Source of the DNA: Jimgerdemannia flammicorona
Taxonomy: Eukaryota
DNA: 39,410 nucleotides
Assembly (NCBI GenBank): GCA_003990765.1
Contig: RBNJ01000142.1
Location: forward strand, 1 to 39,410
Direction: 5' to 3'
The notes below the pieces were generated by a model, which had not been told where the DNA came from, did not search any database, and saw nothing but the letters and a program-made list of their open reading frames with translations. The position numbers and the translations under genes are program-made. Every line of letters begins with the position of its first letter. Within the stretch, counting starts at the first letter, position 1. Positions 1 to 24,699 of the stretch are shown here, piece after piece.

Positions 1-859
1 TCCAGTTCTGAGCTCCGTGCCCTCCCAGACCTTGAACCCCACGTCCACAATCTCACCATACTCCTTTATCGCCTCTATGACCACCTCCCTGGTCCTTTCC
101 TTCGACACCGTAGGGAGGTCCAACACCATCAACTGCACCACCCGGGGGTCCCAGCGCATACACCGAGCCATAGGGACCACAACCCCGCCAACCATCACCC
201 CCTTTTCCATGGCTGCCAACAAGGCATCTTCCTCCTCGAACCCCACTTCAACCCCTTCCTTCCCCCTCAAAAACTTCACCAACGCTGCTCCCCTAGCCTC
301 CTGCGCCACCAGCCCCAAAATCATCCTCGCCGTCACAGCCAAGCCCCGGAAGCACATTGTGACCGCGAATTCTGACCTCGACTTTGAGTAACGGGGCCGA
401 CACCATGCCCATCACCCCATCTGCCAGGTCCCCGGGCCTCATGCCCACTCTAAGTCCCAAATTGCCAACCGCCGTCACATCTGGATTTTTTGCCAGATCC
501 CCAGTCACAGCCCCATCAACCGTCACATCTCCAGCCCCTACTCCGGCCTCTACCCTACCACCAGAAGCACCCTGGGGTGCACCTCCTTGACCCCCGGTAG
601 TAGCCATCGATGCCTTCCCCAGGCCCAGCCAACTATCCAGCCCAGAAGCCATCGCCCCCATCCTGACCTTGTCAGCAAAGGTCGTCCTCTCCCCTCCTCT
701 CTGCCTCAGACCTCCCCTCCCTCCGCCGCTGGGGCCCCGGCTAGCCATCGAGGCCCCTGGCATCCCCAAACCATCTCCCCTCCTCCCCACCTGCTGCCAG
801 CCAAAGGCGCCGCCACCCCCCTGGCTAGTATGCTCACCAGATCGATCGTTGCCATCCAT
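1..859 (-). pseudogene. LINE ORF1-like protein with one frameshift near 390-412
   Basis: Gly-rich N-terminus with TFADKV. A second frame is open from ~410 to base 1: ...GVEVGFEEEDALLAAMEKGVMVGG...VVQLMVLDLPTVSKERTREVVIEAIKEYGEIVDVGFKVWEGTELRTG, resembling the RRM-like core of L1/Tx1-clade ORF1. Confidence 0.65.
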
Positions 860-943
860 GTTATTAGTCGTTGGACACCAAAAACATTGTAGAAAGTGTT
901 GTCTGAGTCTTGTGTAACCTGAATGTTACCAGAGAAAGATGTG
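1..943 (-). mobile_element. 5' end of a non-LTR retrotransposon (L1/Tx1-like LINE) inserted into the 3' LTR of Gypsy element A; continues off the left edge
   Basis: GC- and CpG-rich block abutting element A LTR homology at 944; ~85-nt leader before ATG 859; ORF1-like translation. Confidence 0.7.
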
Positions 944-1697
944 TGAAGGATAGAATGTCAGAAGTCTTCTACTTCATCACTATTGAGGGTGATAGTGGAC
1001 TGGGCTTCTGTAGCTACCCTGGTTTCTAGTACATTGATATAGCAGGATAATAGGTCTCTGAAGTCTGAGACTCTAACATACTCTAAGTTGGAGATTAACT
1101 ATGATGCATGCCTGAAGATCTGATAGATCTTCTTAACTATCTTTGTTTCACATATATCCATGAGAGTGGCATCTTATAGCTCTTGAGTGCTGGCTTGTAG
1201 AAACTCCTGGCAGAAGAGATTTCTTATTTTGTACATACTCCTGCTATATTTGGAGGCATTCAGTAGCAATAGTGATCCTTGTTTTCATTTCACAGTAGTA
1301 GAGAATATAGTGATAAGGGTTACCAGTACCCAGGTTGATACTAGGAGTCCTTCTTGAGCAGGTCCTTATGACTCTTCTGATATCTTGGAACATCCTTTCT
1401 TCGACCAAGGTGCCTTGGTGGTTTCTTGATCCTGAGGTTTAGCAGGCAGCAGGCATTTCATTTGTAGTGAGTCTTTGAGCTATTTTGGGATTGGTGGGTC
1501 TTATTAGTTACTGCTACTACAGTTCCTTGATCCTTCTTTTATATTCCTCAAAATACTATACTGTGGTCATAATGACTTACAGTTGGTCATCATTACTCAT
1601 CTCGTATACTGTATAATTTTCTTGTACTCTGATCTAGTAGCTTGCAAGAAAAGACTGTCTCCTGTGCTGATGTCATCATTCTGAGGTCACTATTATA
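944..1697 (-). repeat. 3' LTR of element A, truncated by the LINE
   Basis: Aligns with ~9916-10665; terminal TTACA decayed to TTATA; followed by PPT. Confidence 0.9.
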
Positions 1698-1707
1698 TCT
1701 TCCTCCT
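1698..1707 (-). other. Polypurine tract of element A
   Basis: AGGAGGAAGA on the minus strand directly abutting the 3' LTR. Confidence 0.8.
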
Positions 1708-2901
1708 GAATAAGGATCTTCTCAAGTGTCCTTATTCATTGGTCCAGTCCTGAAAAATTTACTGATCCCATAACCTCTGGCAAGGGGTCGAAAAGTGGTA
1801 TTTATGGGCTGATATCTTCCTCTTGTATTTTGGCATAATAGTGAAGGATTACTCCCTTCATATAGAGTAAGGGCCTGATTCTGATCTTGACCAATCAGTT
1901 GATGGTTCAAACTTCTCTAGCTTTGAAAGTCTCATAGATGAGTAGTTGCTGATGCCATATCTCTTAGAGAATGGTCCAGATAGATAGCCTACTGGTCATG
2001 GAACATGCTGTTACGATTCACAGACTAGAACCTCATGGGTGGTCATCACATTTTGCTTCTTTTGTATAGATTCATGGTACTTCTTGAGTCTGTTCCTATG
2101 TACTATGGTAGACAGTATGGTTTCTGAGATTTTTCTAAGTCAGAAGATAGTTTTCTTGATATCTTGTATATAGAAGAGTCCTTCCCATTTGGGCTTCAGT
2201 TTTTGCAACCATGAGGCTTCTACCATATTTTGATACAGTAGAACCTTTTCTCCAATTTGGATGGGTTCTAGGGTCTTGTAATTCTTTTCTGCATTCTTCC
2301 TTGTCAGTGCTTGTAACTTGGTGATATAATCTTCAGCCTTCTTCCTGATTTGGTGTAGTCTCCAGATTTCTGCATCAACCCATCTCCAAGTTAGGTCTAG
2401 ATTTGTGGCTGAGGTTCCATCAGAATCTTCTTCTCTGAAGAGCAGCTCTCTTGGAGTAAAGTGTGTGCTCTGTGACCATATATCTCATAGGATAGAGAGG
2501 GCAGTTGGGAGATAGTTATCTCAATTCTCATATGTCTCTGAGATCTTCACTAGGATGTTCTTAAGGGTCTTGTTAGTTCTCTCTATCTATTCATTTTCTT
2601 GAGGGTGGTATGCTGTAAGCACACAATCTCCAAGCCACCAAAATTACATGTCACCCTCTGAACAAGCCACTGAAATTACACGCAACCTCTGAACAAATCT
2701 GGAAATCACCTGCTTGATCACGAAGCTGAGTCAAACCGAAGTCACAGTGCACAAAGCTGAGTCAATACAAAGTCATGGAATACAAGATTTACACAAACGG
2801 AATCTTACCAATCAGGACCAAATGCATATATACTGAGCACTGAGATGCATCAAATCAGAGAACCAAAACAAATAACAACTACAACTTCCAAATACACAAA
2901 T

Positions 2902-3998
2902 ATGACCACTGAGATCTACAACCATATCTGTACTGACATTTGGAATGCCATTGTCAACCGAGCCACACCCCCTCTGCCCCTTATGAATATCCATAGCCTG
3001 ACACCCCTCTACTTCATGGAAGCCCGATGGAATGCCTGAACATACTTAGTGAGGTCCACCGAATCAGACAAATCTCAAGCTACTACTAGATTGGCCGTCT
3101 CCTGGAAGATATGGTTGAACACCACCATGATACAGACATTACCCAGATATCTCAACACCAGAAGCTCATTGCCCACAAATATTGAGAACTCTTCTATGAG
3201 TACAACACCTTTATTCCCTGCCTCCAAGTCACTACTAGCAAAATGGTTGCTACCCTGTCCTATAGCCAAATCGATGACATGATACAAGAACTCAACCACA
3301 AGTACCTCAAATACGTGCAGACCACAGATAGAACCTTCCTGCACCCTGATGACCATATCCTACAAATGCCTCAAGTTGGATACACCATGAAGGACATCTA
3401 TGATATAATCCACTTTGATGAAGATGAAGCAGAAGACAATGATCCCTCTGATGCCAACATGACCTCTAGCCAAGGATCTCTGCCAACCTTGATCACACCA
3501 CCAAACTTGCTGATGAACTTGCAACAGTTCATAACTGTATACGAGACTTATTGGGACAATGACCACTGGCACAAATACCAACCTGCATTCACCCCCGACT
3601 ACTTCAACTACAATGAGGAGACTGGAGAACACAACCTGTACCTCCAGACAACCATCGAGATTGAACCAACCACTCCACTACCTGAGTATGAGCGATATGA
3701 ACCACAGCCACCAACTTACTACAATCCTGCAACTCATAGTACTGTAACCTATAGAAGGTATGCAGACAGTGAATCTGATGAAAGTGAAGACAACACACCC
3801 ATCCTTCATCCACCAATACCTTATCCAGTCTACAAGACAGACGATGCTATCCTGTGGGATGGAGACGAAGTTCCAATGTACTATTACCTCAGCGAACAAG
3901 GAGAAGTAATCCGCAAACCATTATTTCTAGATGACTACTTCATCAGAGATGATACAATCGATGGTGATGTCATCGAAGACTACTTAGACAGCACCTAA
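2902..3998 (+). pseudogene. LTR (U3)-encoded protein of unknown function, about 365 aa when reconstructed; last 251 aa still open (3243-3998)
   Basis: ATG 2902. One 1-nt deletion near 3036 and a TAG are both repaired by the paralogous copy in solo LTR D; one TGA is probably from CGA. Acidic, Tyr/Pro-rich C-half. Confidence 0.75.
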
Positions 3999-4187
3999 AT
4001 TCATAAATAGCCTAGCAGTCATAGTATAGTTAGATTAGCTTTGTACGATGTGACTGTGAACTAACTCAGCAGTCAGACAATCTCTTGACATGTCAGATCA
4101 CACTTGTACTATGTGACTGCATTCTGACTCAGCAAGGCACTTAGTGCTACATCCATATTCAGCATAGTCCAGATAGCCCCTCACTAG

Positions 4188-4195
4188 TATAAATA
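4188..4195 (+). promoter_or_regulatory. LTR TATA box
   Basis: TATAAATA followed by a pyrimidine-rich tract; same motif in D (~16139), B LTRs (18142-18149, 23035-23042, minus) and the A LTR (9338-9345, minus). Confidence 0.65.
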
Positions 4196-5019
4196 CCCCC
4201 TCCCCCAGACCTCAGAATCTCAGACTCGAACACACCAGAACATTCCTGAATACTTCCCCACAATATCCCTTCCAGAACTATGTAAAGGTTACCCTAAAAA
4301 GTAACCCTCTTACATATGCAGTGGTCTTGATATGCTGGATCTTGTATTTTTGATATATTATCTCATGGAATCTATTGACAAATTCTGTGCTATGGTCTGT
4401 TGTGATTTGCTTCAGTGTTTTGTAGTAGCAGATAATTTCTCAGTATAGGAAGTCAGCTATAGAGAGTACATTGACTTCTTGTAATGCTCCTGCCTCTATC
4501 TATTTAGTGAAGAGGTCTACAATAACTATAATATAGTAGTTTCCTGATAGTATTACTGGTAGTGGCCCAATAATATCTATTGCAATGTGGTAGAAGGGGA
4601 TAGGCTCAATTCTTGATGACCCGGGTGCCTGGTCTTGTTGATTTTGTTTCTGTTTTTAATACTTGTCACACTCTTTGACAAATTGGCATAGGTCTTCTTC
4701 CATCTTGGGCCACTACATGGTTCTTCTTGTCTTATCATATATGTTGGTTCCTCCTAGGTATTCTTGCTTATATACTTCTTTTATTATTTGATACTTCTTG
4801 TATTTGGGTATTACTAGCTTTCCTCCTTTTCTGAGTATAGTGTTGTCTAGTTCAAACTATTTCCAAGTCCAGTTGATAATGGTGATTATTCAGGGTTCGA
4901 GGTGGTTGGGTATCTTCTGCTGCCCAAGATAGCTGATTAATCCATAGTATAGCTCTTTATTCATATTGAATAGTCTTGATGGGGGTGTTTCAGGGTATTC
5001 TTGAGAGTGCATCAGTGTT

Positions 5020-6300
5020 GATATTGGTTCTTCCTGAGTGGTACTTGATTGTACAGTCATACTCTTGCAGTCTGTAGATCCATCTGGCATATACATATTT
5101 CTTTGGAGTTCATAGTGTGGAATAGCCAGGCAAGAGCAGAATGGTCTGTTTGAATAGTGAAGTATTTCCCAGCTAGGTAGTAGTGGAACTTATCTACTGT
5201 CCAAACTACTGCTAAGCATTCGAGCTTGCATGACTCATAGTTCTGTTCTGCTTCATGGGTATCTTGACTTACATAGGAGATAATATATTCATATCCATCT
5301 TTCTTCTGAGCTAGGACTGCTCTAAGTCCTATAGCACTTACATCTGTCTGCAGGATGAATTCTAGGTTCCAATCTGGTTTTCTGAGGATAGGTGCTTGGG
5401 TCAATCTGGTCTTGAGTTCATTGAAGGTTTCTTGGTACTCCTTGGTCCATTTAAATTTAGTTTTCTTCTTCAGTAGCTCATAGATAGGTACTGCAATATT
5501 AGAGTATCCTTTGATGAACCTTCTGTAGTAGCTGGCCAGTCCAAGGAAGGCATAGACTTCTGTGGTTGTTCTGGGTCTCAGGTAGGCTGCAACAGTCTCA
5601 ATCTTCATGGGGTCTGTGTGGATTCCAGTCTGATTGATGAAGTGTCCTAGATAGGTGATTTTCTGAGCTGCAAACTTGCATTTCTTGGGCTTGATATAGA
5701 GGCCATGCTCCTTGAGCTTCTTGAGGGCTAGCTATATGTAATTGATATGTTCCCATACAGTGTTGCTGAAGATAATCATATTATCAACATAGACAAAGAG
5801 CTATTTTCCAATCTTATTGCTGAAGACTCTGTTCATCATTCGCTGAAAACTTACTGGGGCATTGTACATTCCAAATGGTATTCACAGGTAGATATAGGTG
5901 GCATCAGGTATGATGAAGGCTGATTTCTCACTGGTATCTTGTATGAGACCAATCTGATAGAAGCCTGAGAACAGATCCAAGGTAGTGTAGTATTTGGCTT
6001 TACTTCTAAGAGTAGTAAGGATTTCTTGAATATTTGGCAAGAGCTATCTATCTTTCTTGGTGATGGCATTGAGCTTCCTGTAGTCAATGCAGAGTCTTGG
6101 TGCAAACTCTTCAGGCTTGCTTCCTTTCTTTGGGGCAAGGACAATGAGTGAAGCCCAGGAACTGATAGCTTGCTTGATGATTCCAGCTTCTTCCATTTCC
6201 TTGAGTTCTGCTTGCAACCATTCTCTGTAGACAGGTGATATGGGTCTGGCTTTCTGGTAGATGGGCTTGGTATCACCAGTGTCAACTTTATGGTAGTACT
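5020..6300 (-). pseudogene. Reverse transcriptase and RNase H of element A
   Basis: VLAPKK...PRLCIDYRKLNAITKKD; VYVDNMIIF (decayed YVDD); FLGLASYYRRFIKGYS; FILQTDVSAIGLRAVLAQ; LECLAVVW; TDHSALAWL. Confidence 0.95.
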
Positions 6301-6481
6301 TGGGTTCTTGATTGTAGATATCCCTAAAGTCTGTAGTGAGTACTCCTTTGTTCTAGTGCAGAATCTTGAGAAGTTGTTCTTCTAGAGGAAAGTTTTCTCC
6401 AATGATATATGTGTGCTTGTTCTGGTCCTTATCTTTCTTGTACTCAAGTTTAGTAATCTTGATAGCAGTATAGGCTCCTCT

Positions 6482-6893
6482 TCCAGTAGATCCAAAGCCT
6501 TGTTCTTCTCTTTTAATCTTGATGAGTTTGATGGCTTCTATGATCTTGGGCTTCTTGACTTCATAGATCAGCATCTGGCTAATCCTGTCATACTTCTTGA
6601 TTTCAAATAGAGTGGTGGAGTTGTGATTCCTGACTATGAGAAAGATCTCATCAGTGTAATCAGAGTCAATTACTCCTCCTTTAACTGAGATTTCGCTTTT
6701 GGCCAGACTGCTCCTGGTCTTGATAATTCCAGTATGATTCTCTGGCAGCTTGACTCCAATTCCAGTGCCAAGTAGGGTAGTGGTCTGTGGTTCAAGGGTA
6801 GCATCTTGAATGCTAGCAAGGTCCATTCCTATGGCTCCTTCAGTCTTGTATTCTGGGATCTTGGCTTCGGGGTAAAACTTCTTGATCTTGAGG
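6482..6893 (-). pseudogene. dUTPase domain between protease and RT in element A
   Basis: Motifs GAIGMDL, KTRSSLAK, GGVIDSDYTDEI, DRISQM, QGFGSTG. Confidence 0.95.
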
Positions 6894-7289
6894 GTGATGT
6901 CTGATTCTTATTCCTCCTCATCATCACTATCAGCCTGAAGCTCTGGGGGCTAGTCATCTTCTTCAGCTTTTCATTTTGCTTTAGTAGCTTCTTGCTCATA
7001 TTTCTGATGGCAGATTTTCCTGACTTCACTGATATAGGACCAGCAGTCATTCAGGTGTTCAGAGCAGTACATCCTAGTACCATGGAGGTATCTTCCTTGA
7101 GGGGTATAGCCATTGATGATCTTGCTGTACCACTGCTCATCTGTAAGCTTGGGTGTCTTATTCTTATTCTTATTTACTGAGTACATGAAGACTTCTGTAT
7201 CCTCTTCATCTCCTTCCTCCATGTCTAGTAGGACTCCTTTGTGAACATTGATAGAGACTTGTACCTTTCTTCCTCTATAGTTGATCTGC

Positions 7290-7610
7290 ATCTTCTGGGC
7301 ATTGAGGTCAATGATGGCCTTGGCCTTATGAAGCCATTGGTTGCCAATGAGGATATCATAGTTGGTGGCACTTGTAACAATTACATCTACTGGGATAGTA
7401 GCTTCTTCTATCTTTATGGGGACTTCTCAGATTTTGCCAAGGGGGGTAGCTTGTGTACCATCTACTGTGATACAGACCATCTTGGTAGACTCTTCAATGT
7501 CCCAGCCTAGGCAGTCAATTGCCTTCTTGCTTATAAGACATCCTCCAGCACCAGTATCAATGATAGCATCAAAGATACAGTCTTCAATCTGACATGGGGT
7601 ATAGGCTGAT
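7290..7610 (-). pseudogene. Aspartic protease of element A
   Basis: DAIIDTGAGGCLIS catalytic motif; downstream DILI-GNQWL-like segment (frameshifted). Confidence 0.85.
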
Positions 7611-8179
7611 GTCTTGTGCTGATCTTCAGATTCTTCACCTGAGTTCTCAGATTCTTCCTGTGCATTGTGAGCTTCTACAATCTTGTACTCTTGATTCTTG
7701 GTGGTAGTTGTAAGTCCTACTCTCAACTACTGTCTAAAGGTAGGAACTTTAGCTAGCTGTCCAAAGGTAGCATTGACCTTCTATTCCTTGAGGTCCTTGT
7801 AGATATCATACTGATGGATCTTGGTCTTGCACAGCTTCTGTTCCTTCTTGCTTTCATTTTCTCCTGAGACTGGAGTAGTACCTTCTATGATTTGGTAGGC
7901 AGCTTCATCTAACTCTATATCTTGATCAATCTCCTCAGATTGAGTCTTTCTTTGAATGGTGACAGCAGGGGTCTTCTTTGGTCTTCCAACTGGCTTACTG
8001 TTGCTCTTCTTGTCATAGGGCTTGGACCAGGTTCTGGTACCTTCAGTAGCAGGGTAGAATTCAAGCTCCTCATAATATTCTTCATCATCAGTGTCACCAA
8101 TCTCCTTGATGACTACTGCATTGGTTTGTTCTCTGGTTCTGCTAGCATTGCTTGGTTGGGCTTTGTGTCTTGTTTTGGT

Positions 8180-8986
8180 TATGCAATTCTTTGCATAGTG
8201 GCCTTCTTCTCCACATCTGAAGCATGTGATATTGTATTCTTCTGTAGTAGCTGCAAATCTCTGCACTGGTCTCCTGTTGGCACTTCAGACTTCTCTAACA
8301 ATATCACTAAGGTATGTAGTCATCTTGGTGAACTGCTTGATAAGTTCTTCTACTGGATCAGCTTTGGCTGTCTTGGGGGTAGATGGGGATGGTTATCTGT
8401 TTACAACTATGGTAGGTATGATACTAGTTGGTTTTGATGGCTCCATCTTGATGCCAGTTATTTTCTCTATTGAGTGTTCGGCAGGGTGTCTGGCTGTCCA
8501 ATATCTCTGTATAAAGACTACTTTCTGATCAAGGGTCAGTGCAGCTGAAATAGATCAGATTGCTAGGGCAATTTTAGGGTGAACTCTTTTGAGGAAGGTT
8601 GAATCTGCTATTTGTTCCTTGAGGCAGTCATCATAACCAGCCAAGACAATCTGATGGCAGATTCAGGTATAGAATAAGTTGGGATCTTCACTAAGTCTCT
8701 GATAGATAGTATTGAGTTGATCCTTGAGAGCTTGCTTAATCTCTTCAGTATAGTATGTTGTTCTGAGGAAGGCCTTCATATTGGTAAGTTTGGCTGCATC
8801 ATTATCAGCAATAGTAGCTACATTGAACTTATCTCTAGTAGATCCTCTGAGGCTGACTGGTAAAAGGGCCAATTATATATCCATACCAAGGGCTCATATA
8901 GTGGCAAATTGTTCAAAGTCTTCAATGAAGGTCAGGATTGACTCTTCAGTAGTATATCTATAGAATGTGGGGGGATATATTTCCAT
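8180..8986 (-). pseudogene. Gag of element A with CCHC zinc knuckle
   Basis: MEIYPPTF...FIEDFEQFA; LLPVSLRGSTRDKF; CFRCGEEGHYAKNC at ~8185-8226. Confidence 0.85.
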
Positions 8987-9086
8987 TTTGTCTTGAATAC
9001 TTGCAGGGGTGACTCTTGTAGTCAGGGTAGTTATTGTGGAAATTGTTTGTTTTTTAGCTTGAAAGTGAGGAATTCATCTTAAATTA

Positions 9087-9103
9087 TCAGCCAATAGGTA
9101 CCA
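9087..9103 (-). other. Putative primer-binding site of element A
   Basis: LTR end ...TGACA, spacer ACT, then TGGTACCTATTGGCTGA; same 3-nt spacer as in element B. tRNA not identified. Confidence 0.55.
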
Positions 9104-9106
9104 AGT

Positions 9107-10665
9107 TGTCATGTAGTAGTCACTGAGTTCTTCAAATATACCAGATTCTCTTCAAGATGTATCTCTTAGACTAACTCAAGTTTGTTATAAGCAAGTTCTT
9201 ATTGGAGTGCCTTTCCAAGGTCTTATAGTCCTCAAACTTCTTATTTTTAACTATCTTGTTATCTCTTAGATTGCTTGCAAGGAAGTGTGTGTATTACACT
9301 GAGAAGACTGACTTTATTTCAGAGGAAATAAGAGGGATATTTATACAAAATATAATTCAATGATTGCTAAGATATAAAACTAAATATAAATTCCAATAAC
9401 TAAAATAAAATACCAGAATAGGAAAAACTACTAAGTTCCAGGGTCAGCACTGATAGTTGTACAGGTTTAGGATGCTGATATAATTCAGTGTCACATCAGA
9501 ATACTGGTGCTGGTATTATTCAGTGTCACATTAAATACCAGTACTGAAACAATTTTGCATCACCTCAGAATATCAGTACTGATATTATTCCATATTATAA
9601 GAGACTTAGAGCAGAATTTTCAGAATTATGGGGGCTTCATCCTCATCATCAGAGGTCAGGATATCTTCAAAGGAGATGAGGTCTGTGAACATCTCGTCAA
9701 GGTCACATAGGTCACATGGGATGATGTCATCACTGATGACATCATCACATTCAATGGTGGGAAAATTGGAAACAAGAAGATCTGGAGCTCTCCAGTCTAT
9801 AAAGTTCTCTTCCACAAAATAGGGAACAAATATGGGGTCTTGAGGAGGTCTAACCTAGATGCTTGGGTCTTGGAATACTGAGATCAATCCTTACAGGAAT
9901 TGGTCTGGGTTATCCTGAAGAATAGGATGCCAGAAGTCTTCTACTTTATCACTATTAAGGGTAATAGTGGACTGAGCTTCTGTAGCCACCCTGGCTTCTA
10001 GTGTATTGATATGGTGAGATGACAGGTCTCTGAAGTCTGAGACTCTAACATACTCCAAGTTGGGGATCAACTATGGTACATATCTGAAGATCTGATGGAT
10101 CTTCTTAACTGTCCTTATTTCACATATATCTATGGAAGTGGTATCTTGTAGCTCTTGAGTACTAGTCTGTGGGAACTCCCAGTAGAGGAGGTTTCCTATT
10201 TCATACTCCTGCCATATTTGGAGGCATTTGGTAGTAATGGTGATCCTTATTTCTATTTCATAGTAGTAGAGGATATAGTGATAAGGGTCACCAGTACCCA
10301 GGTTGACACTAGGAGTCCTTCTTGAGCAGGTCCTCATGGCTCTTCTGATGTCTTGGAACATCCTTTCTTTGACTAAGATACCTTAGTAGTTCCTTAATCC
10401 TGAAATTTAGCAGGCAGCAGGCATTTCATTTGTAGTGAGTCTTTGAGCTATTTTGGGATTGGTGGGTCTTGTTGGTTACTGCTACTGCAGTTCCTTGATC
10501 CTTCTTTTATATTCCTCAAGATACTATACTGTGGTCACAATGACTCACAGTTGGTCATTATTGCTCATCTTATATACTGTATAATCTTCTTGTACTCTGA
10601 TCTGGTAGCTTGCAAAGAAAGACTGTCTTCTGTGCTGATGTTATCATTCTGAGATCACTATTACA
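9107..10665 (-). repeat. 5' LTR of element A (~1.56 kb)
   Basis: TGT...ACA termini; TATA at 9338-9345; ~36-bp tandem repeats at ~9470-9600; matches 944-1697. Confidence 0.85.
9606..10361 (-). pseudogene. LTR (U3)-encoded protein of element A, 251 codons with three in-frame TAG/TAA stops
   Basis: Track ORFs 10071-10361 and 9606-9815 are in the same frame (offset 546 nt) and join through stops compatible with CAR>TAR; shares a motif with the LTR C ORF. Confidence 0.7.
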
Positions 10666-10839: not shown

Positions 10840-13103
10840 AGCTATATAGATAACCAGATAGTAATCACAACTATTTAAAATACTCTAGAGATAAGAGTAA
10901 ATAAACCTCAGTTTGAAATTGAAACTAAAAAGTAAAAGATAAGCCTATCTACTATACTTTGAGAGATATACCTACTAAAAACCACTTGATCCTAAAAGAA
11001 AAAAAATTATAATATTTAGAAGAAATATCTACTCTAAAGTTACTTTTAGGAGATTGTAAGCTTGTCTGATTTATACTCTGGTCAACTTTCTGATATAAAG
11101 AAGTCTACTACTCAAAGTTAGTCTAGTATAAGATATATCTTTATAACAAATCTATTTATACAAATAAAGCAGTCTTTGATATAACTTTGAAAAGTCTGCT
11201 ATATTTTGGTATATTTGCCAGATAAAGCTAGAAATCTATCAATTTAGAAAGAATCTATATTATCTATTATTTTTGAGTAAATCTGTATCCTCCAAAGTTA
11301 TCTATTAAATTTACTAACTTATTATCTAATAAGAAAGTCTGCCAAATTATCTGTATAATAAATAAGACTATTATATAGAAATTGTATACTTTTGAAAGTA
11401 GATCATTATATAGAAATTATGTATATACTTTTGGAATCCATTATGCTATACAGAGATTATTATATAAATTACTATTATATTCAAGAACTATACTAATAAG
11501 AAAATTAATAGAATTATTTATAAATATCCAGATTTATCTATTATATATATACTACTACTAAACATTAATAAGAAATTGAGAATTATAGAATATTTTATTA
11601 CTTTTGACAAAGTAACTGAGGGCTCAAGTCAATCTATATAGTAGTTTTAACCTTGTAATTTATCTCTATTAAGTCAGTATATTATATTTAAGAGGCTTAA
11701 CTAAAAAGATTTTCTTTAAATCTATATGACTTTTTAGCTTACAAGAATTCAAGAGTCAAACTGAATATATTTGATATAATACAAATCTCTATTACTATAG
11801 AAAAATGAGTCATTACTAGTATTTGGACAGAAAGAGAAGTAATTATCTTAAGACTTATCAATTACCTAGTATCAGAAGGATTCTAATCAGAAATCAGTAT
11901 AGTATAGAATTCTCAACCAGTACTAACAGACTTACTACCAGGAAATCTGATTCAGCCAGATCAACCAGATAATATAGATAGCTCTGCTAGAAACTTCAAT
12001 AAGCTTATATAAGAATTAAAAGATTTTATTACACAATTCTAGTTTCTCTCAAAAGTCCCACCAGTCTTCCCTATTGAACCACTATTAAAACTAGTAACTA
12101 TAGAATTAGAAGGATCAGAAATAGTTTCTTCAAGAATACCCAGACCTACTGCACCTCACTCAAGATTAATAACATTATCTTTAGGATATCCAAGCATTTC
12201 AAGCTCTAGCAACAACTCAAAAAGTAAATTAGAACTAAAAGACAGTGATAATAAAATGACCACCTCAATAACAATTTTTACAAGATATTCAAAAGAAGAC
12301 CTAAGAGATTTTCTTGATATAATTAAAGGAATAACAGCTTTAAAGAATCTCTCTACTCAGAGAAAAGTTACTATCTATAAGACTCAACTTAGAGAACTAG
12401 CTAAGGGAATTTTCAACTAAGTAGTAAGTAATGTACATTTAGACCTTAGAGCAGTTATCTATATAGTATTATCTTGAGAAGAAGAATATAGAGTTATAAC
12501 CCACTAGCTTATTGAAAAATATACAGAAAATAAAATCTACTATAAGGCTCAAGAATCTATTATAGAGATGAAGATAAATTTCAGAGAATTGCTCAGAGTA
12601 TTCTTTATTAGAATCTAGAAAAGAATATATATAGCTAGGTTCAATACTACTAACTAAGACATTATAGGTCCAATAATCTTTATGAATAAGATTCCTCCAA
12701 ATATTACTTAGTATATTTATACTCTAGATATTAGAAAGCTTGAAGAATAAGTAGATATAGCTTAAGAATTTTTTAATGTTAGACAAGGAACTATCTAGAG
12801 TAATTATGATAAGAAGAATGATAAAGAAGATCTTTTGGTTAAAACCCTATAAGAACTTTTTCAAGAATATGAAAAATCAGAAGAAGAGAAGCCAGTTAAG
12901 GAGTAAAAGAAAGAGAGAAATAAAATCCAAGATCTTAACTTCAAGTTGGACTGATTAGTTGGACAAATTGAAAAACTCACCATATATAAAAATTGAAGCT
13001 ATTTATAGAATGATAGAGGGTATATACTATAAAGAAATCAAGACTACCTATTCAGTATAATGTGTCCAGCTCAATGGGAGTAAATTATAAGATTAGATAT
13101 TAA
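10840..13103 (+). mobile_element. Very decayed Gypsy remnant F: LTR (to ~11638), PBS-like remnant and gag
   Basis: LTR-like part matches 13104-14120 in inverted orientation; gag-like IFTRYSKEDLRDFLDIIKGI...KVTIYKTQLRELAKGIF at ~12270-12420. Confidence 0.6.
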
Positions 13104-14120
13104 TGTAGTTTGGTTTAAGCCTCTAGTTACTTTGTCAAAAAGTAATAAAATATTCTAATATTCCTGAGGTTCTTAGTATTTAGTGATATAATAGTCAAGT
13201 CTAGATACAGTGATTGATTCTAGTAGTTTTCTTATTGAGATAGTTCTTGAGTATAGTAGTAATTTCATATGATAGTCTCTATATAACATAGTATTTTTCT
13301 TATATGTATAGGACAATCTGGTAATTTAGTAGTTTCTTTCTTAAATAGCAGCAATCTCTTTCTGTATAGTGTGATAATCTCTATATAGTATAATGATCTC
13401 CAAAAAAAATGTAATTTTTAGTATAATAATCTTGGCAGTATTTCTTATATAGATTTGATAGATAACTTGATTTAGCAGGTGATTTGATTTTATATAGATT
13501 CTCCTAAATTAGTAGGCTTTTAGAAATATCAGATAACTTGGATAACTTAGATGATTTGAATAACTTAGATAACTCAGATAACTCAGATGATACAGATTCT
13601 TAATAGGTTATATCAAGACTGATTTCATTTATATAGAATTATATTATAGACTGGCTCTACTATAAAGTTATATCAGAAGACTAACTTATGGCAAGGTTTC
13701 TTATAGTAGGCTCTTTGAAAATGATAGTAGATTTTTCTCTTGATAAAGTTGTATCAAGACTGGCTTCATTTATATAGAGTTATGTTAGATAGACTAGCTC
13801 TACTATAAAGTTGCATCAATAGACTAGCTTTATAACAAAAGGTAGACTTCTTCTTGAAAGTGTCAGCTTATTTCTTAAATAACAAATTACTCAAATAGCA
13901 GTAAAGTTCTTCACTCAAACTTAGATAGTAAAATACTCAGGTTCTTCAGGCTTATCTAGTGAATATACTAATCAATCTATATCAAAAAGTGGACTAGAGT
14001 GGAAAGAAAAGCTATTATTTTAGATTCAATTTTAGACTAAGATTTATTCACTCTTGTCTCTGGAGTATTTTATATAGTTGTAGTTACTATCTAATTACTA
14101 TCTGATTAATTATAAAATAC
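13104..14120 (-). repeat. Decayed LTR related to the element F LTR, inverted (possibly the 3' LTR of remnant E)
   Basis: Starts TGTAGTTTGG; reverse complement aligns with 11560-11638 and 10860-10930; internal 9-bp and ~90-bp duplications. Confidence 0.6.
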
Positions 14121-14597
14121 ATAGTATAGCTAAATATAATATATGACTTCCACTGTACCCTCAGGATATAGTATCTTTAAGATATAGTGCCTTTAAGGTT
14201 CAGTTATCATAATCTAGGTATTTGGTACTATTTATATGGTTTTTACAGCAACTAGATAACTATGAGAGTAACTATGATATATGGTCATATTATCTGGGTA
14301 TCTCATATATATATCACATTAGTCTTCACTAAAGGATGATCTGTACTCAGACTATTCTTTAGTTATCATTTTAGTAGATATAAGCATCTTCTGCACCAAT
14401 ACCTATACTATCACTATATTAGAGTCAGGGTCACTCTATTCAAGATCTGAGCCTTATTACTCTAGTGGAGAATAGAAACTCCACTTATTGTAGTATACTT
14501 TGGAAGATAGCTTTATTTATCTTTTGAATATTATTATATGAAATTGTACTTAGGTGAGTACTCTCTCATTGTGTCTATAGAGTATATAGATCTTTTT

Positions 14598-16641
14598 TAT
14601 AAGTATACAACCTCCAAGCTACTGAAATCACATATCACTCTCAGAAAAAATCTAGAAATCATATATAAGATTATGAAGCTGAGTTAAACTAAAGTTACAA
14701 AGTACAAAGCTGAGTCAACTCAAAGTCATAGCACACAAGATTTACACAAATAGAATCTTACTAATTAAGACTGAATATATATATTGAGTACTCAGATATA
14801 TCAAAACAAAGAACTATAACAAATTAAATAAATAACTACAACTCTTAAACATATATATAAACATGACCACTGAGATCTACAACTATATCCATACTAATAT
14901 TTGGAATGCCATTATCAATTGAGCTATACTACCTCTACCCCTTATAAATATCCATAGTCTGATACCTTTTTATTTCATAGAAGCTCAATGAAAAACCCTG
15001 AACATACTCAGTAAAGCCCACTAAATTAGATAAATCTCAAACTACTATCAGATCAGCCACCTTCTAAAAGACATGATTGAATACTACTATAATATAGATA
15101 TTATCCAAATATCTCAACACTAGAAGCTCATTGCCCATAAATACTGAGAACTCTTTTATGAGTATAGTACCTTTATTCCCATCTCTAAGTTACTACTGCA
15201 GAAATAGTTACTACTCTATTCTATGGCCAAATCAATGATATGGTACAAGAACTTAACTACAAATATATTAAATATATTCAAACTACAGACAGAACCTTCC
15301 TATATCCTGATGACTATATTTTGCAAATACCCCAAGTTGGATATGTCATAAAGGATATTTATAATATAATCTAGTTCAATAATTATAAAGTAGAAGATAA
15401 CAATCCCTTTAATGCTGACATGATCTTCAGCCAAAAATCTCTGCCAGCCCTAATTATCCCACTAACCTTACTAATGAACTTATAATAGTTTATAATCATC
15501 TATGAGATCTATTGGAATAATGACTATTGTTATGAGTACTAATCTGCATTCATATCTGATTACTTTAACTATAATGAAGAAACTAGAGAATATAATCTAT
15601 ACCTCCAGACAACTCTTAAGATCAAGCCAATAACCCCCTCTGAGTATGAATAAAATATATAAGCTACAGTTGTTAATATACTATAATCCTGTAACTTATA
15701 GCACTATTATCTATAGAAGATATATAGACAGTAAATCTGATGAAAGCAAAAATAATATATCTCTCCTTTACCTACTAACTCTATATCTAGTATATAAGAC
15801 AGATGATACTATCCTATAGAATAGTAATATGGTCTTATCTGAGCAAATAGAGAGAAGTAATTCAAGAACTACTCTTCCTAGATGACTACTTCATCAGAGA
15901 TGATATTATTGATAGTGATATCATTGAAGACTACTCAGATAGTATCTAAATCTATAGATAGCTTAGCAGTCATTAGTATAGTTAGATTAGCTTTATATGA
16001 TATAATTATATATTGACTTAGCAGTCAGACAATCTCTTGATATATTAGTTCACACTTATACTATATGACTGCATTCTGACTCAGTAAGGTACTAAGTACT
16101 ATATCCATATTTAGCATAGTCCAGATAGCCTCTCATTAGTATAAATATCCTCTCCTCCAGATCTCAGAAACTCAGACTTAAATAGACTTGAACAGATCTA
16201 TATATAAGAACTCCTGAATACTTCTCCACAATATCCCTTTATATAACTACTTCTAGTATAGTAATATTATGAATAGCAAATAAATCTATTTAATAACTCA
16301 CAACTCACTTTTAAGTAAATCTATACTCTATTAGGTCTCACTTCTAAATATATTATAAAATTTTCTAATTGGATATTGTCTGTAACAATATGTCAATTCA
16401 ACTAAGCTGATTTTAGTTTTTTAAACTTTCTGAAATACAGAAAATCCTGAACATCTAGAATAAATCCAAAAAAAGAACTTTGATTGAGATATTAATCTAA
16501 TCTTAAAATCAATAAGTATAGATAATATACTCTATATAAAATTGATCTTAACCTTAAGAAAACAGTCTTCTAGAATATCTAGAACTTCAGAAAACTCTTC
16601 CAGAACTATATAATGGTACTTTTATAAGTAATTCTATTATA
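14598..16641 (+). mobile_element. Solo LTR D (~2.04 kb), older copy of the LTR C family
   Basis: Collinear with 2614-4314 including the dead ORF (14863-15949); also has the ~370-bp 3' segment present in B LTRs but deleted in C; flanks TTTTT/CTTCT fit a C>T-decayed TSD. Confidence 0.9.
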
Positions 16642-16919
16642 CTTCTAGTAGCTATATTATTTCAGTAGTTTAAACATACAGATATTCTTATATATATGGG
16701 GTCTTAAAAGACTTATCTAATGAAGAAATAGATTTATAACTGATGGACCTATAGCAATCTCTGAGCTATAGTAAGGTTTTTGAGATACTCTTGAATTCAT
16801 CTACCTAGAGTTTCTTAGAGTTAATGGAATATAGGTATGGAGATAGGTAGAGACTATAGAAAACTGAGAATAAGGGTCTGAAGATACTAGTCAATTATCT
16901 AATTTATAGTATAGAGAGA

Positions 16920-17652
16920 TATATCTTAAGGCAATTGATATATACTAGTATCCTTAGAGTTCATCTATCTATACTTCTTAAATAGATACTAGTTCCTCTG
17001 ATATTATATACAAGATAAGGTCCTTTCCATTTAGGCTTCAGTTTGGTAGTAAAGTTTATTTCAATCACACTTCTTCAAACTAATATTTGATCTCCAATCT
17101 TAATCTTCTGATCCTTCTACTTCTAGTTATAATACTTCTGTTGTCTTTTTTGGGCCTTAATAATCTGGATTCAGACTTAATTATATAACTGTTCTGTCTT
17201 CTTGAGGAGATCTCCAAGATTCTTATGATCAGAAGTTCTGATCCTTTTGATAAACATCATCTTGAATAACTTCTATTTGGTGGAGATAATAGGGGTATTA
17301 TGAATTCTCCATAGGATCTCAAATAAGCAGAGATCCTAGTTGATAGAATTAACTTAGGTAAGTCCTTTCTTAATAGTCTGATTTATTTGTTCTATCATAC
17401 CATTAGTCTGAGGATAGTATGATATAGTTTACTTGAGATGAATCTTGTAAATTCAGATATAACTTATAATTATATTATTGATAAATTCTGTGTCTCAGTC
17501 AGAGATAAGTTTTTCTGAAAGTCTATCTAAGTATAAGTCTATAGAGAAGACCAATAATGATCAGGGTATCTGTAATTTTCATTGGAAAGACTTTGGGCTA
17601 CTTAGTCAGATATTCTACAAATATAAGAATATACTTATTTCTCCTTGGTATA
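16920..17652 (-). pseudogene. Integrase core and C-terminus of old Gypsy remnant E (host of element B)
   Basis: NKYILIFVEYLTK*P; YYPQTNGMIEQINQTIK; KLKPKWKGPY. Confidence 0.85.
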
Positions 17653-19151
17653 TGTAAGAGGGTTACTTTTTAGGGTAACCGTTATGTAGTTCTGGAAAGG
17701 TTTTCTGGATATTTTAGATGTTCTGGAAGACCATTTTCTTATGGTCAAGATCAATTTTGTATGGAGTACATCCTCTATGCTTATTGATTTCAAGATTGGG
17801 TTGACGTCTCAACCAAAGTCCTTTTTCGGACTAGTTCTGGATGTTCAGGATTTTCCGTATTTCAGAAAGTTCAAGAAACTAAAGCCAGCTTAGTTGAATT
17901 GGTGTATCGCTGCAGACAATACCCAATTAGGAAATTTCGTGATGGGGTTAGGAGTGGGACCTAACAGAGAGCAGATTTACTTAAGAGTGGTTTATGGGTT
18001 ATGGAATAGGTTTATTTGCTATTTATGATATTGCTATACTAGAAGTAGTTGTGTGAAGGGATATTGTGTGGAAGTATTCAGGAATGTTCTTATGTGTTCG
18101 AGTCTGTTCAAGTCTGAGATTCTGAGGTCTGGGGGAGGGGGTATTTATACTAGTGAGGGGCGATCTGGACTATACTAGATATGAATATAGCACTAAGTGC
18201 CTTGCTGAGTCGGAATACAGTCACATAGTATAAGTATGATCTGACATATCAAGAGATCATCTGACTGCTGAGTCAGTTCACAGTCACGTCATACAAGGCT
18301 AATCTAACTATACTATGACTGCTAGACTATTTATAGGTTTAGGTGCTGTCTGGTTAGTCTTTGATGACATCACTATTGATGACATCATCGCTGACAAAGT
18401 CTGAGCAGTTTTCTGACTTCTGATATCATCAGTTTCAAGGTGTCATCACTTCTATCTCTTGCAAGATTAAGGCTGTCCTTGGTAGCAGTGGTTATACAAG
18501 GATAACAGGTCTTGGTTCTCTTTTTTTTTGGTCTGCTGGTGCATTTGTAAGGACTGGCCATTCTCATCTAGGGCGAGGGCTCCCAATGTCGCAGCTGGGG
18601 GTTCGAACCTCTCAGAAATGATATTTTCTGTAATCCGAGGCAATTTCTAGTAGTAATATCTGTTACATGGATGGCTTGAGATTGGTTTCGACATTGTCGG
18701 CTTTCTTGAGTTCAGATGAAGTGTCCATCACTCTCCAATAGAGGTGATACAGATAAAGCAAACAGAGTTGTTCAAATGCATTTTGCTTCTGCTAAGTAAT
18801 GAGGTCTTATATAGTCGCAGTATATCTTAGTCTTGAGTTAATAAGTGCAGTTCATAAACCTTTTGATGGGTGAGATAGGGTTCTTTTTGTCTTGATTTGA
18901 GTTTGGTACTTTTGGTTTCTTTTGTAATAGTACAGTACACCAAACTAGCTATAGCGGTTCAGAGTCAGTCTTATGGTTATAGTACTTCTTCTAGTATTCT
19001 TGTATCTTGGCAGTGGGTTCTCATGCTTGCTGGCATATTTGTGTAACCAGATGATCTCTTCAGTAACTTGTTTTGTAGTCTTGCATGTAGTTTCCAAATT
19101 AGTTCTGAGGATACTATGTGATTTTGGTGGCTTGGAGGTTGTGTGCTTACA
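17653..19151 (-). repeat. 3' LTR of element B
   Basis: TGTAAG...CTTACA termini; collinear with 22546-24043. Confidence 0.97.
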
Positions 19152-19165
19152 ACTCTCCCCTTCTT
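19152..19165 (-). other. Polypurine tract of element B
   Basis: AAGAAGGGGAGAGT abutting the 3' LTR. Confidence 0.85.
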
Positions 19166-19199
19166 AGCTTTCGACGTCCTTGTCAGGGCCTTCTAATTT

Positions 19200-19335
19200 G
19201 TTCTGATGTTGTTGTACCATTTGGATGGTTCTTGTAGCTGTGTTTGTTGAAGATTTGTTCAACTTTGTACTCTTCTTGGTCATTAATAATAACAGGTGCA
19301 GGTGGTTTTGTGGTTTGGTTCGGAAATGTGTCTCA
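19200..19335 (-). pseudogene. Truncated chromodomain and linker remnant
   Basis: DTFPNQTTKPPAPVIINDQEEYKVEQIFNKH resembles the chromovirus PPPP..DGEEEYEVE.IL chromodomain start. Confidence 0.7.
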
Positions 19336-19559
19336 GATCTTCTGGAGTAGTGGTCTGACATGGTTGTCAACTTTGGAAAAATCTTCTTCAGAGTTCTCAG
19401 GTTCTCCTTTGGGTAGTTAGATGGAGATAGCGAAGAGAGGGTATTTCTTGGCCAATTTCTTGAGTTGTAGCTTGTTGATATGGGTGATCTTTGGTCCAAG
19501 GTCACTAGAGTTGAGTGAGTCCTTTTTGCCTTGTAGTTTGAAGTTGTGGTGTCCTTTCT

Positions 19560-19900
19560 TGATGGTCAGAGAATGGTTTACCCAATCGATCATGGGGTTC
19601 TCTTGTTTTAACCATGGAGTCCCAAGGATGATTTCATTGTCAGGAAGTGGTATGATTTGGAGGATAACATATACTCAGTAGTCACCAATTCAGAAGGGTA
19701 GATTGCGGACTTCTTTGCTAATAACATGTGAGGTTCCATCAGCTGTAGCAACTGCTTGAGTTTGCTGTACTGGGGAGGTGAAGACCTTGAGTCTATTGGC
19801 TGTCTCTTCATTAATGAAGTTGCCTGAGGCACCACTGTCTATCATAATCTTGACAGGTGCTCCATTGACAAAAGTCTTAAGGGTGAGCAGTTTGTCTGAT
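19560..19900 (-). pseudogene. Aspartic protease of element B
   Basis: VNGAPVKIMIDSGASGNFI; IILGTPWLKQENPMIDW. Confidence 0.92.
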
Positions 19901-20107
19901 CCAATGGTGGTGATTTCAGTTGTAGGAGCCTTTCTTCTGTTGGTTCTTCTTTGAGCCAGTTTGTTGACACAAGAGAAGCAATCATCAATCATTCGGGAAG
20001 AGTATATTCCAATACCATGAGGGCATCGGCCACTTGATATATATCCATCTTTGATCTTCTTGTAGAATTGTTCTTCTTTGCTTATGGTAGATTGGGCTGG
20101 GGCCTTG

Positions 20108-20520
20108 TTTGATGAGCCAAATCCTTTGGATCCTCAGATGGTGGGCAGTAGTTCAGGGACTTCTTTGACTGTCAGGGTTGACTTGATTTTTTCGAATAGG
20201 ATCTGGGTGATGCAGAAGCCAATAGGGATCTTGAAGGGTGTCCAACTGTGATTTCGAATGAGGACAATGATTTCGCCTGTATAATCTTCATCAATGACTC
20301 CTCCTTCTACTGAGAGTCCTTTCAGTACTAGGCTGCTGCAACAGCATATTCTTCCAACATGTCCTTCAGGGATTTGGATACTGATTCCTGTATAGACTTG
20401 TTTGACTTCTTGGTTAGAAACTGTAGCTTCTTCGGCTATATACAGGTCATATCCAGCTGCTTTTTGACTTTCTTTTGGTTGGGGTCTTAGCAGTTTGTCT
20501 TAACTTGACAAAGTCCAGTG
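20108..20520 (-). pseudogene. dUTPase of element B, between zinc knuckle and protease (absent from the ORF track)
   Basis: Manual translation: AAGYDLY...GHVGRICCCSSL..GGVIDEDYTGEII...CITQILF...*GSKGFGSS; the motif Arg residues appear converted by CpG decay. Confidence 0.92.
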
Positions 20521-20589
20521 TTCTGGTGGTCAGGTTGTTGAGGTGGTACAGAGTGGTAACAGTTGCTCATGTTGCTGTTCAGGGTTTTC

Positions 20590-22540: not shown

Positions 22541-22542
22541 CA
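22531..22542 (-). other. Primer-binding site of element B, initiator-tRNA-Met-like
   Basis: TGGTAGCAGTGA 3 nt after the LTR end; TGGTAGC is the usual complement of fungal/animal tRNA-iMet 3' ends. Confidence 0.7.
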
Positions 22543-22545
22543 AGT

Positions 22546-24043
22546 TGTAAGAGGGTTACTTTTTTAGAGTAACCATTACGTAGTTCTAGAAAGGTTTTCT
22601 GGATATTCTGGATATTCTGGAAGACTGTTTTCTTATAGTTAAGATCAATTTCATATGGAGTATGTCCTCTATGCTTATTGATTTCAAGATTGGGTTGACG
22701 TCTCAACCAAAGTCCTTTTTCAGACTAGTTCTGGATATTCAGGATTTTCCGTATTTCAGGAAGTTCAAGAAACTAAGGCCAGCTTAGTTAAATTGGTGTA
22801 TCACTGCAGACAATACCCAATTAGGAAATTTCATGATGGGGTTAGGAGTGGGACCTAACAGGGAGCGGATTTACTTAAGAGTGGTTTATGGGTTATGGAA
22901 TAGATTTATTTGCTATTCATGATATTGCTATACTAGGAGTAGTTATATAAAGGGATATTGTGGGGAAGTATTCAGGAATGTTCTTATGTATTTGAGTCTG
23001 TTCAAGTCTGAGATTCTGAGGTCTGGGGAGGGGGTATTTATACTAGTGAGGGGCGATCTGGACTATACTAGATATGGATGTAGCACTAAGTGCCTTGCTG
23101 AGTCGGAATGCAGTCACATAGTATAAGTGTGATCTGACATGTCAAGAGATCATCTGACTGCTGAGTCAGTTCACAGTCATGTCATACAAGGCTAATCTAA
23201 CTATACTATGACTGCTAGGCTATTTATAGGTTTAGGTGCTATCTGGTTAGTCTTTGATGACATCACTATTGATGACATCATCGCTGGCAAAGTCTGAGCA
23301 GTTTTCTGACTTCTGATATCATCAGTTTCAAGATGTCATCACTTCTATCTCTTGCAAGATTAAGGCTGTCCTTGGTGGCAGTGGTTGTACAAGGATAACA
23401 GGTCTTGGTTCTCTTTTTTTTTGGTCTGCTGGTGTATTTGCAAGGACTGGCATTCTTGTCTAGGGTGAGGGCTCCCAATGTTGCAGCTGGGGGTTCAAAC
23501 CTCTTGGAAATGATATTTTCTGTAATCTGAGGCAATTTCTAGTAGTAATATCTGTCACATGGATGGCTTGAGATTGGTTTCGACATTGTCGGCTTTCTTA
23601 AGTTCAGATGAAATGTCCATTACTCTCCAACGGAGGTGATACAGATAAAGCGAACGGAGTTGTTTAAATGTGTTTTGCTTCTGCTAAGTAATGAGGTCTT
23701 GTATAGTCACAGTATATCTTAGTCTTGAGTTGATAAGTACAGTTCGTGAACCTTTTGATGGGTGAGATAGGGTTCTTCTTGTCTTGATTTGAGTTTGGTA
23801 CTTTTGGTTTCTTTTGTAATAGTACAGTACACCAAACTAGCTATAGCAGTTCAGAGTCAGTCTTATGGTTGTAGTACTTCTTCTAATATTCTTGTATCTT
23901 GGCGGTGGGTTCTTATGCTTGCTGACGTATTTGTGTAACCAGATGATCTCTTCAGTAACTTGTTTTGTAGTCTCGCATGTGGTTTCCAAATTAGTTCTGA
24001 GGATACCATGCGATTTTGGTGGCTTGGAGGTTGTACACTTATA
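22546..24043 (-). repeat. 5' LTR of element B
   Basis: Collinear with 17653-19151; differences almost all transitions; terminal TACA decayed to TATA. Confidence 0.97.
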
Positions 24044-24660: not shown

Positions 24661-24699
24661 ATTGGTCAGATTTTTCTTGAACTAAAACTGTTATTGAAG

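Follow-up and report, generated by a model that had tools for sequence, protein, structure and literature searches.

Probable accessory genes in the U3 region of long terminal repeats from two Gypsy lineages of Jimgerdemannia flammicorona

We analyzed a window of 39,410 nucleotides (nt), positions 1-39,410 on the forward strand of Jimgerdemannia flammicorona contig RBNJ01000142.1 (assembly GCA_003990765.1). The layout of the window was derived by comparing it with itself and by inspecting the ends of its repeats. It holds four pieces of retroelements: the Gypsy elements A and B, and the solo long terminal repeats (LTRs) C and D. An earlier note, made from the DNA letters alone, had proposed that the LTRs of A and those of C and D hold a sense open reading frame (ORF) in the unique 3' region (U3), upstream of the TATA box, and that the two frames encode one protein family. 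From the sequence evidence below, we consider it highly probable that both LTR families carry a real, selected accessory gene in U3, upstream of the LTR TATA box. Whether the two genes are homologous is a far closer question, to which we return after describing each of them.

The C-family gene could not be read as a single frame in the window. The interval 2902-3998 measures 1097 nt, which is no multiple of three, and therefore cannot be one continuous frame. Translation from the ATG at 2902 (frame 1) proceeds for 45 codons before meeting a stop. The C peptides quoted in the earlier note lie in frame 0, which is open only across 3186-3998 (270 codons, or 251 from the ATG at 3243). Three lesions were identified in this copy: a deletion of 1 nt after 3034, a TAG at 3087-3089, and a TGA at 3183-3185, both stops being C-to-T changes. 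An exhaustive search of 1.84 billion representative proteins with the C protein returned three matches. P0001 (247 amino acids, aa) was 66% identical over 250 residues and fully open, with a start equivalent to the ATG at 3243. P0003, a metagenomic protein of 128 aa that is ended by the edge of its contig, starts with MTTEIYN as at the ATG at 2902. It runs unbroken across the frameshift and both C stops, with Q and R at the stop positions. The third match, P0002 (436 aa, six tandem repeats), was dropped; it matched over 36 aa only, with a score inflated by repeats, and its Pfam rows contained no passing stretch. No longer, fused form of the C protein was present among 495 candidates.

Other copies of the C gene were read at 80% or greater likeness from contigs of four runs, two from soil metagenomes and two from a single organism (X1 to X4), for which the listed contig rows cover 3034 and 3087 and not the TGA at 3183. 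Position 3087 was a C, giving CAG, at a depth of 1325 out of 1434 in X1 and at all depth in X2, X3, and X4. The extra C behind 3034 accounted for the full depth in X4 (5.45 of 5.45) and X3 (14.3 of 14.3), for 6.3 of 20.3 in X2, and for 13.4 of 239 in X1. Because P0003 bridges all of the breaks and the contig copies mend those at 3034 and 3087, we read the C family as carrying a 365-codon gene and copy C as a pseudogene with three lesions. The ORF of about 365 aa upstream of the TATA box is thus a feature of the family, as judged from P0003 and the contig copies, and not an open frame in copy C, where a frameshift and two stops interrupt it. The ORF that the earlier note also ascribed to D persists only as shredded remains, spread across three frames.

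C is a true solo LTR, because it has TG..CA ends, a 5-bp duplication of the target site, and contigs with the empty site. Specifically, contigs of run X2 connect 2610 to 4319/4321, which corresponds to element A without the C insertion. The claim that the gene is present in solo LTRs therefore stands for C. The LTR family to which C and D belong may be tied to a recognizable element through B. Both B LTRs adjoin a polypurine tract (PPT), AAGAAGGGGAGAGT, on one side and a primer-binding site (PBS), ACTTGGTAGCAGTG, on the other, and the pair encloses gag-like, dUTPase, and protease sequence. The junction between LTR end and PBS in B, ACA/ACTTGGTA, is of the same kind as that of element A. The first ~110 nt and last ~750 nt of C and D match the B LTR pair. 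Between these ends, in the middle of U3, C and D have ~1.2 kb with the ORF, and B has ~0.7 kb without a long frame. Family profiles detected no third gene copy in the U3 of B or elsewhere in the window.

Two peculiarities are private to copy C. It contains a 31-bp duplication near 2663 and lacks ~360 bp of R/U5 at 4267, and contigs have loose ends at both positions. The missing stretch is present in D, where it includes an AATAAA, and in metagenome contigs. In contigs of X2 and X4, a loose end resembling a PPT was seen before 2614, and its source could be a C-type or a B-type LTR. One X2 contig joins 3410 back to the LTR start at 2614 via 30 other letters, which represents either a truncated LTR beside another one or an assembly artefact. 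Among 13 runs, none of them listed as RNA, parts of LTR C were found in soil metagenomes sequenced by several studies and in the runs of a single organism. In X1, 3037 contigs matched, many of them diverged copies, which implies that the C family is abundant in soil samples.

The A-family gene occupies the position that the earlier note had given it, a sense frame of 251 codons at 10361-9606 upstream of the TATA box at 9345, and has three in-frame stops in this copy. Five homologues were found (161-271 aa, E-values from 9e-109 to 2e-35). They are 61-79% identical to the A frame and 61-80% identical to each other, and they have W, Q, and Q/R where the A copy has its three stops (alignment A3). 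The family profile matched 10361-9609 in the 5' LTR. In the 3' LTR, it tracked the gene from 1393 to ~850, past a small deletion, up to the point where unrelated GC-rich DNA begins. A plausible gag start lies shortly past the LTR end and PBS-like site. We place the A frame inside the LTR, in U3 and upstream of the TATA box, because the 3' copy can be tracked to ~850, because a TATA box, an AATAAA, and the LTR-end/PBS junction follow the frame, and because the likely gag start lies beyond these. The gene-bearing repeat is found at both ends of one element with gag, protease, dUTPase, reverse transcriptase (RT), and RNase H.

We considered whether the ORF stretch might instead lie outside the LTR, as an internal ORF3 that follows pol and precedes a shorter LTR, the boundaries having been misread. 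The blastn match between the A LTRs breaks off at 9916/944, midway through the ORF, and the B LTRs share just their two ends with C and D, as such a misreading would predict. However, the target-site duplication flanks C exactly at TGTAAG/CTTACA, and the initial ~110 nt of C correspond to the beginning of both B LTRs, directly past the B polypurine tract. C and D also start at the same base despite their different flanks. The A ORF occurs twice, once ahead of gag in the 5' repeat and once past the PPT in the 3' repeat, where the profile extends to ~850. An internal ORF3 is accordingly a far-fetched explanation of these frames, and we retain their placement in U3, where each lies past the first ~300 bp of its LTR and ahead of the TATA box.

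Having located both frames within LTRs, we quantified the signs of coding. Neutral simulations carried to the same amino acid identity left the C frame open in 8 of 1000 and 19 of 1000 runs (transition shares of 0.67 and 0.9, respectively) and the A frame open in 31-63 of 1000 runs. Substitutions were conservative, with 81% positives observed compared to a simulated mean of 76% and a maximum of 80.5-81.3%. Within the ORF, the differences between C and D at first, second, and third codon positions numbered 7/6/22 for transversions (p = 0.001) and 80/47/108 for transitions. The control set, made up of differences that arose between the A LTR copies after insertion, consists of transitions only and was distributed 22/15/23 (p = 0.39). 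Because the C-D transversions concentrate at third codon positions, these results indicate selection at the level of the protein. A hand tally by codon position of the 31 best-supported differences between contigs and C gave 11/7/13, which is uninformative because these differences mostly reflect copy C's own decay.

The same data bear on the possibility that the frames are non-functional, being relics or chance frames that seem conserved since the copies in the database are of recent origin or were chosen as open. All copies in the window are broken, the homologues are few (two for C and five for A) and come from short contigs, and gene callers give open frames only. Nonetheless, the homologous frames are open at 61-80% mutual identity, whereas under neutrality a given copy would be expected to stay open in 1-6% of cases. 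The excess of transversions at third positions is missing from the post-insertion control, and substitutions are more conservative than simulated. We therefore regard non-functional frames as very unlikely and the presence of selected genes as the better description. The coordinates of both genes and of the surrounding features are collected in Table 1.

Table 1. Retroelement features of the window, with positions counted from its first nucleotide.
Feature	Position	Strand	Remarks
Element A	~850-10665	-	CCHC gag, protease, dUTPase, RT remnant, RNase H
3' LTR of A, truncated	850-1697	-	blastn pair 944-1695 / 9916-10663 and family profile
Second, decayed A-family gene copy in 3' LTR	1393 to ~850	-	Profile matches 1393-1232 and 1236-850
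Polypurine tract AGGAGGAAGA of A	1698-1707	-	Sequence
5' LTR of A, 1559 bp	9107-10665	-	TGTAAT start at 10665; 3' end placed from ACA/ACTTGGTACC
A-family U3 gene, 251 codons, 3 in-frame stops	9606-10361	-	Five homologues
Motifs downstream of the A frame	TATAAATA 9345; AATAAA 9318; ACA/ACTTGGTACC 9107	-	Sequence; PBS-like ACTTGGTACC from 9106
Left target-site duplication of C, TATGC	2609-2613	.	Repeated at 4315-4319
Solo LTR C, 1701 bp	2614-4314	+	TGTAAG...CTTACA ends; inserted in pol region of A
TATA-like ATATATAC, ~70 nt upstream of C ORF start	2826-2833	+	Kept as ATATATAT in D
C-family U3 gene, intact length 365 codons, pseudogene here	2902-3998	+	Stop TAA 3996-3998
Still-open part of C gene, 251 codons from inner ATG	3243-3998	+	Equals the whole of P0001
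TATAAATA, presumed LTR promoter of C (predicted)	4188-4195	+	190 nt past ORF stop; kept in D and B LTRs
Right target-site duplication of C, TATGC	4315-4319	.	Sequence
Solo LTR D	14598-16641	+	C family, 77% identical to C; heavily C>T/G>A decayed, AT-shifted
ORF remnants in D	~14863-15949	+	Spread over three frames
Element B	17653-24043	-	1.5-kb LTRs, 94% identical; short interior with dUTPase then protease
3' LTR of B	17653-19151	-	C/D LTR family; gene lost
Gene remnant in B 3' LTR	18342-18398	-	Last ~19 codons and stop only
5' LTR of B	22546-24043	-	Followed by PBS ACTTGGTAGCAGTG from 22545

The elements hosting the two genes are, from their sequences, different dUTPase-bearing Gypsy lineages. 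Both A and B contain a dUTPase (6353-7426 and 19690-20499, respectively, each on the minus strand), and the order of protease and dUTPase in B is opposite to that in A. We consider A and B different lineages because this order differs, because their dUTPases are 42% identical, and because the A LTRs share no DNA similarity with the LTR family of C, D, and B according to blastn. On the same three grounds, the earlier claim that two distinct Gypsy lineages host the A and C LTRs was upheld. A segment of ~50 aa with the pattern EQ.Y.KI..GY..GR..HG sits between protease and dUTPase in both arrangements.

We next asked whether the two genes form one protein family, as the earlier note had concluded from an alignment made by eye. 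As a pair of sequences, the A and C proteins did not align better than shuffled controls. BLASTP gave an E-value of 15, and the local score of the whole proteins was 33, compared to 37 ± 5 for shuffles, of which 405 of 500 reached the score. For the core alone, the score was 30 against 24.8 ± 4.6, with 81 of 500 shuffles reaching it. As profiles, the alignment exists and is weakly above chance: hhalign reported a score of 29.3 (P = 0.0024) at a probability of 12%. Other row sets scored lower: 28.3 when the A side was limited to intact homologues, 24.1 when P0003 was used by itself, and 23.8 (P = 0.017) for a C alignment of different composition. The probability ranged from 2.7 to 12% over the row sets. 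The match is collinear over ~105 N-terminal columns, beginning from both N-termini, and its stretches include DIRRAM/DIWNAI, QMWQEYEIGNLL/QISSYYQIGRLL, and KKIHQIFRHAPWSIPNLEY/RKHRELFYEYSTFIPRLRA. Shuffling columns resulted in a mean score of 14.2 (standard deviation 2.6, maximum 24.9), with 0 of 200 shuffles reaching 29.3, as did 0 of 75 when the other side was shuffled. Shuffling in blocks of 8 columns, which keeps local motifs, reached 29.3 in 1 of 75 cases. Reversed profiles scored 17.2 and 16.7.

These results leave room for both genes being real U3 genes that are unrelated, having been captured or having evolved separately at a single permissive location within U3. The shared motifs would then reflect chance or a common helical, acidic composition. 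Such independence would account for pairwise scores that fall within those of shuffles, for the low hhalign probability, for the drop from 29.3 to 23.8 upon adding a single row, and for the one block shuffle that attained the full score; beyond the first ~110 residues, there is no similarity. It accounts less well for a collinear match from both N-termini that exceeds all 200 and all 75 column shuffles as well as the reversed controls, or for the same position and layout of the genes in A and C. Furthermore, an identity of 19-23% between the two genes fits common descent, because the host elements are themselves 36-42% identical (42% in dUTPase and 36% in a neighboring segment) and an accessory gene would evolve faster. 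Weighing these points, we consider separate origins a substantial possibility, somewhat short of an even chance, and homology of the A and C genes roughly an even call from sequence comparison.

The encoded proteins share general properties. Both are acidic overall and have an acidic C-terminal block with 11-19 bulky hydrophobic residues per block. Net charge ranges from -8 to -13 per 40 residues, with the last 40-residue blocks at -13 and -10, as expected from the Asp/Glu-rich tails that had been described. The N-terminus of the A family is a basic patch. AlphaFold models built from shallow alignments predicted all-helical N-termini, with helices over the first ~130-160 residues, at low confidence (pLDDT, the predicted local distance difference test, of 34.4 and 43.3). 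Pfam contained no match for seven proteins, comprising the window copies (E ≤ 1) and P0001, P0003, P0004, P0005, and P0006 (E ≤ 10), so that neither gene belongs to a family catalogued there. A sequence-profile search of the PDB returned nothing for alignment A3 and just a hit of E = 0.14 to SKA1 for alignment A4. In the Atlas, the P0001 model (pLDDT 0.39) had no feature match, and P0004 had sub-threshold matches (0.85-0.86), mostly to Basidiomycota clusters without names.

Mutational patterns in the window provide context for how such genes might be lost. The differences within the A LTR pair (944-1697 and 9916-10665) comprise 88 transitions and no transversion, those within the B LTR pair (17653-19151 and 22546-24043) 87 transitions and 1 transversion, and both sets lie mostly at CpA/TpA. 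This bias fits the signature of a process like repeat-induced point mutation (RIP). Two AT-rich blocks, at ~11000-17000 and 24000-28000, have a GC content of 24-30% and are compatible with a RIP-like process. As read from their lesions, the gene copies in the window were killed by RIP-like C-to-T mutation together with small indels.

Our favored explanation, which we hold to be moderately probable as a whole, is that these are selected U3 accessory genes with the following origin, expression, and action. An accessory ORF located past pol would have entered the LTR once a polypurine tract preceding the ORF had taken over the priming of the plus strand; because U3 starts at the site of this priming, such a shift would carry the ORF into the LTR. 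Both lineages may have received the gene from a common dUTPase-Gypsy ancestor. The gene copy in the 3' LTR would lie at the 3' end of the genomic RNA, and its expression would therefore need either a subgenomic RNA or an upstream TATA-like box. TATA-like boxes are found 70-210 nt upstream of the start codons, at 2826 in C and at 10576 and 10511 in A. A box of its own would let a solo LTR express the gene as a self-contained unit. The protein, with its predicted helical N-terminal domain and its acidic tail rich in hydrophobic residues, might act in trans as an activator of the element's own LTR, in the manner of Tas or Tax. Tail composition fits that of an activator, while no DNA-binding domain was recognized by Pfam and the models are of low confidence. 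The activator mechanism in particular is doubtful.

Alternatively, the gene could be real and its product could counter host defense (RIP, methylation, or RNA silencing), or serve targeting or nuclear import, rather than activate transcription. Repeats in this genome are heavily mutated, as the two LTR pairs illustrate (88/0 and 87/1 transitions/transversions, mostly CpA/TpA), and such a function would therefore pay; histone- and DNA-mimic proteins, moreover, have acidic tails too. On the other hand, no motif or relative indicates such an activity, and every gene-bearing copy in the window was mutated anyway. We consider this alternative a serious rival, although an unlikely one. A bolder proposal is similarly unlikely to hold in full. 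According to it, the gene is ancient and was inherited by at least two dUTPase-Gypsy lineages, each LTR, including solo ones, is a unit of promoter, gene, and terminator, and the protein would act in trans on the LTR promoters of its family or counter host mutation of repeats, a benefit shared with gene-less, non-autonomous relatives such as B.

Returning to the explanation in terms of selected U3 accessory genes, a number of observations weigh against it. There is no intact gene copy in the window, nor is there a full element with a C-type LTR. B belongs to the same LTR family as C and D and has no gene; having lost it, B implies that the gene is not needed in cis. The few homologues are known as proteins, on contigs of 778-1625 bp, and scans of metagenomes and viral contigs gave no confirmed match to homologue DNA. 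The protein database lists called ORFs only, which favors open copies. Both AlphaFold models have a pLDDT below 50, no family, fold, or motif match in Pfam, PDB profiles, or the Atlas backs any function, and the proposals concerning promoters and splicing rest on short motifs.

Outside of the retroelements, the window contains further repeats and frames. Positions 1-850 form a GC-rich block (58%, with strong strand skew) that adjoins the truncated 3' LTR of A, and its long frames (293-925 on the minus strand and 392-892 on the plus strand) had no Pfam match. A tandem array at 30800-34200 consists of 10-11 copies of diverged units of ~180 bp that are 60-89% alike. Within it, a 253-aa frame (33341-34102, minus strand) had a weak, sub-threshold match to a leucine-rich repeat family. 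At 36127-36528 on the minus strand, part of a protein kinase domain (Pkinase, E = 1e-9) was recognized amid other short frames and may be a decayed host gene.

Retrotransposon LTRs are regarded as control regions that encode no protein and are masked in annotation, and a solo LTR passes for a dead remnant. If the reading proposed here is true, fungal Gypsy elements can hold accessory genes in the style of retroviruses, encoding conserved proteins of 250-365 aa within U3, and solo LTRs may stay carriers of genes. Some of the orphan proteins catalogued as hypothetical in fungi and soil metagenomes could then be LTR-borne. The two families would also offer a system for studying shifts in LTR boundaries and the sharing of accessory genes among retroelement lineages.

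Among retrotransposons, the closest comparisons are elements with additional ORFs. In the parts of the literature available to us, the additional ORFs (aORFs or ORF3) of LTR retrotransposons from plants, bdelloid rotifers, and Botrytis are described as often orphan and as kept in most copies of a family, and in bdelloids one ORF type is common to different retroelement lineages (PMC5408684; PMC7264820; 10.1101/2021.04.13.439636). The portions consulted place these ORFs internally, most of them either preceding gag or located after pol and before the 3' LTR (PMC7264820; PMC5408684). Unlike internal ORFs of this kind, the A and C ORFs lie within the repeats and persist in solo LTRs. Elements A and B resemble the dUTPase-bearing Gypsy elements of other fungi, including PosPlaTy3 of Postia placenta, Phanerochaete elements, and Tmt1 of Tuber, for which the sections seen report a varying position of the dUTPase relative to protease and RT (PMC2864245). 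A figure legend in that article mentions an "add. ORF" with no stated position, and the sections seen describe no LTR-embedded gene (PMC2864245). More broadly, searches of the main texts of openly accessible articles listed no paper that describes a gene within the LTR of such a retrotransposon from fungi or plants.

The arrangement of the probable U3-embedded accessory genes in these fungal Gypsy elements is otherwise known mainly from a few retroviruses. Proteins encoded in U3 include Sag of mouse mammary tumor virus (MMTV) and lentiviral Nef. The tas/bel genes of foamy viruses and lentiviral nef are accessory genes past pol/env that reach into U3, and foamy-virus Tas is a transactivator that has an acidic activation domain and uses an internal promoter. 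In contrast to foamy tas/bel and nef, which only overlap U3, the window genes lie wholly within it. According to Pfam, the window proteins have no sequence match to the Sag, Nef, or foamy Bel/Tas families. In MMTV, sag is a sense ORF situated entirely within U3, upstream of the LTR promoter, in both LTRs and at the 3' end of the genomic RNA. The window genes differ from it in having no Pfam match to Sag and in belonging to a Ty3/Gypsy element without env in a fungal host. Sag is also a membrane glycoprotein, whereas the window proteins are acidic and predicted to be helical. Nevertheless, the window genes share the architecture of MMTV sag, as sense ORFs in U3 upstream of the TATA box in both C (2902-3998, TATA at 4188) and A (10361-9606, TATA at 9345).

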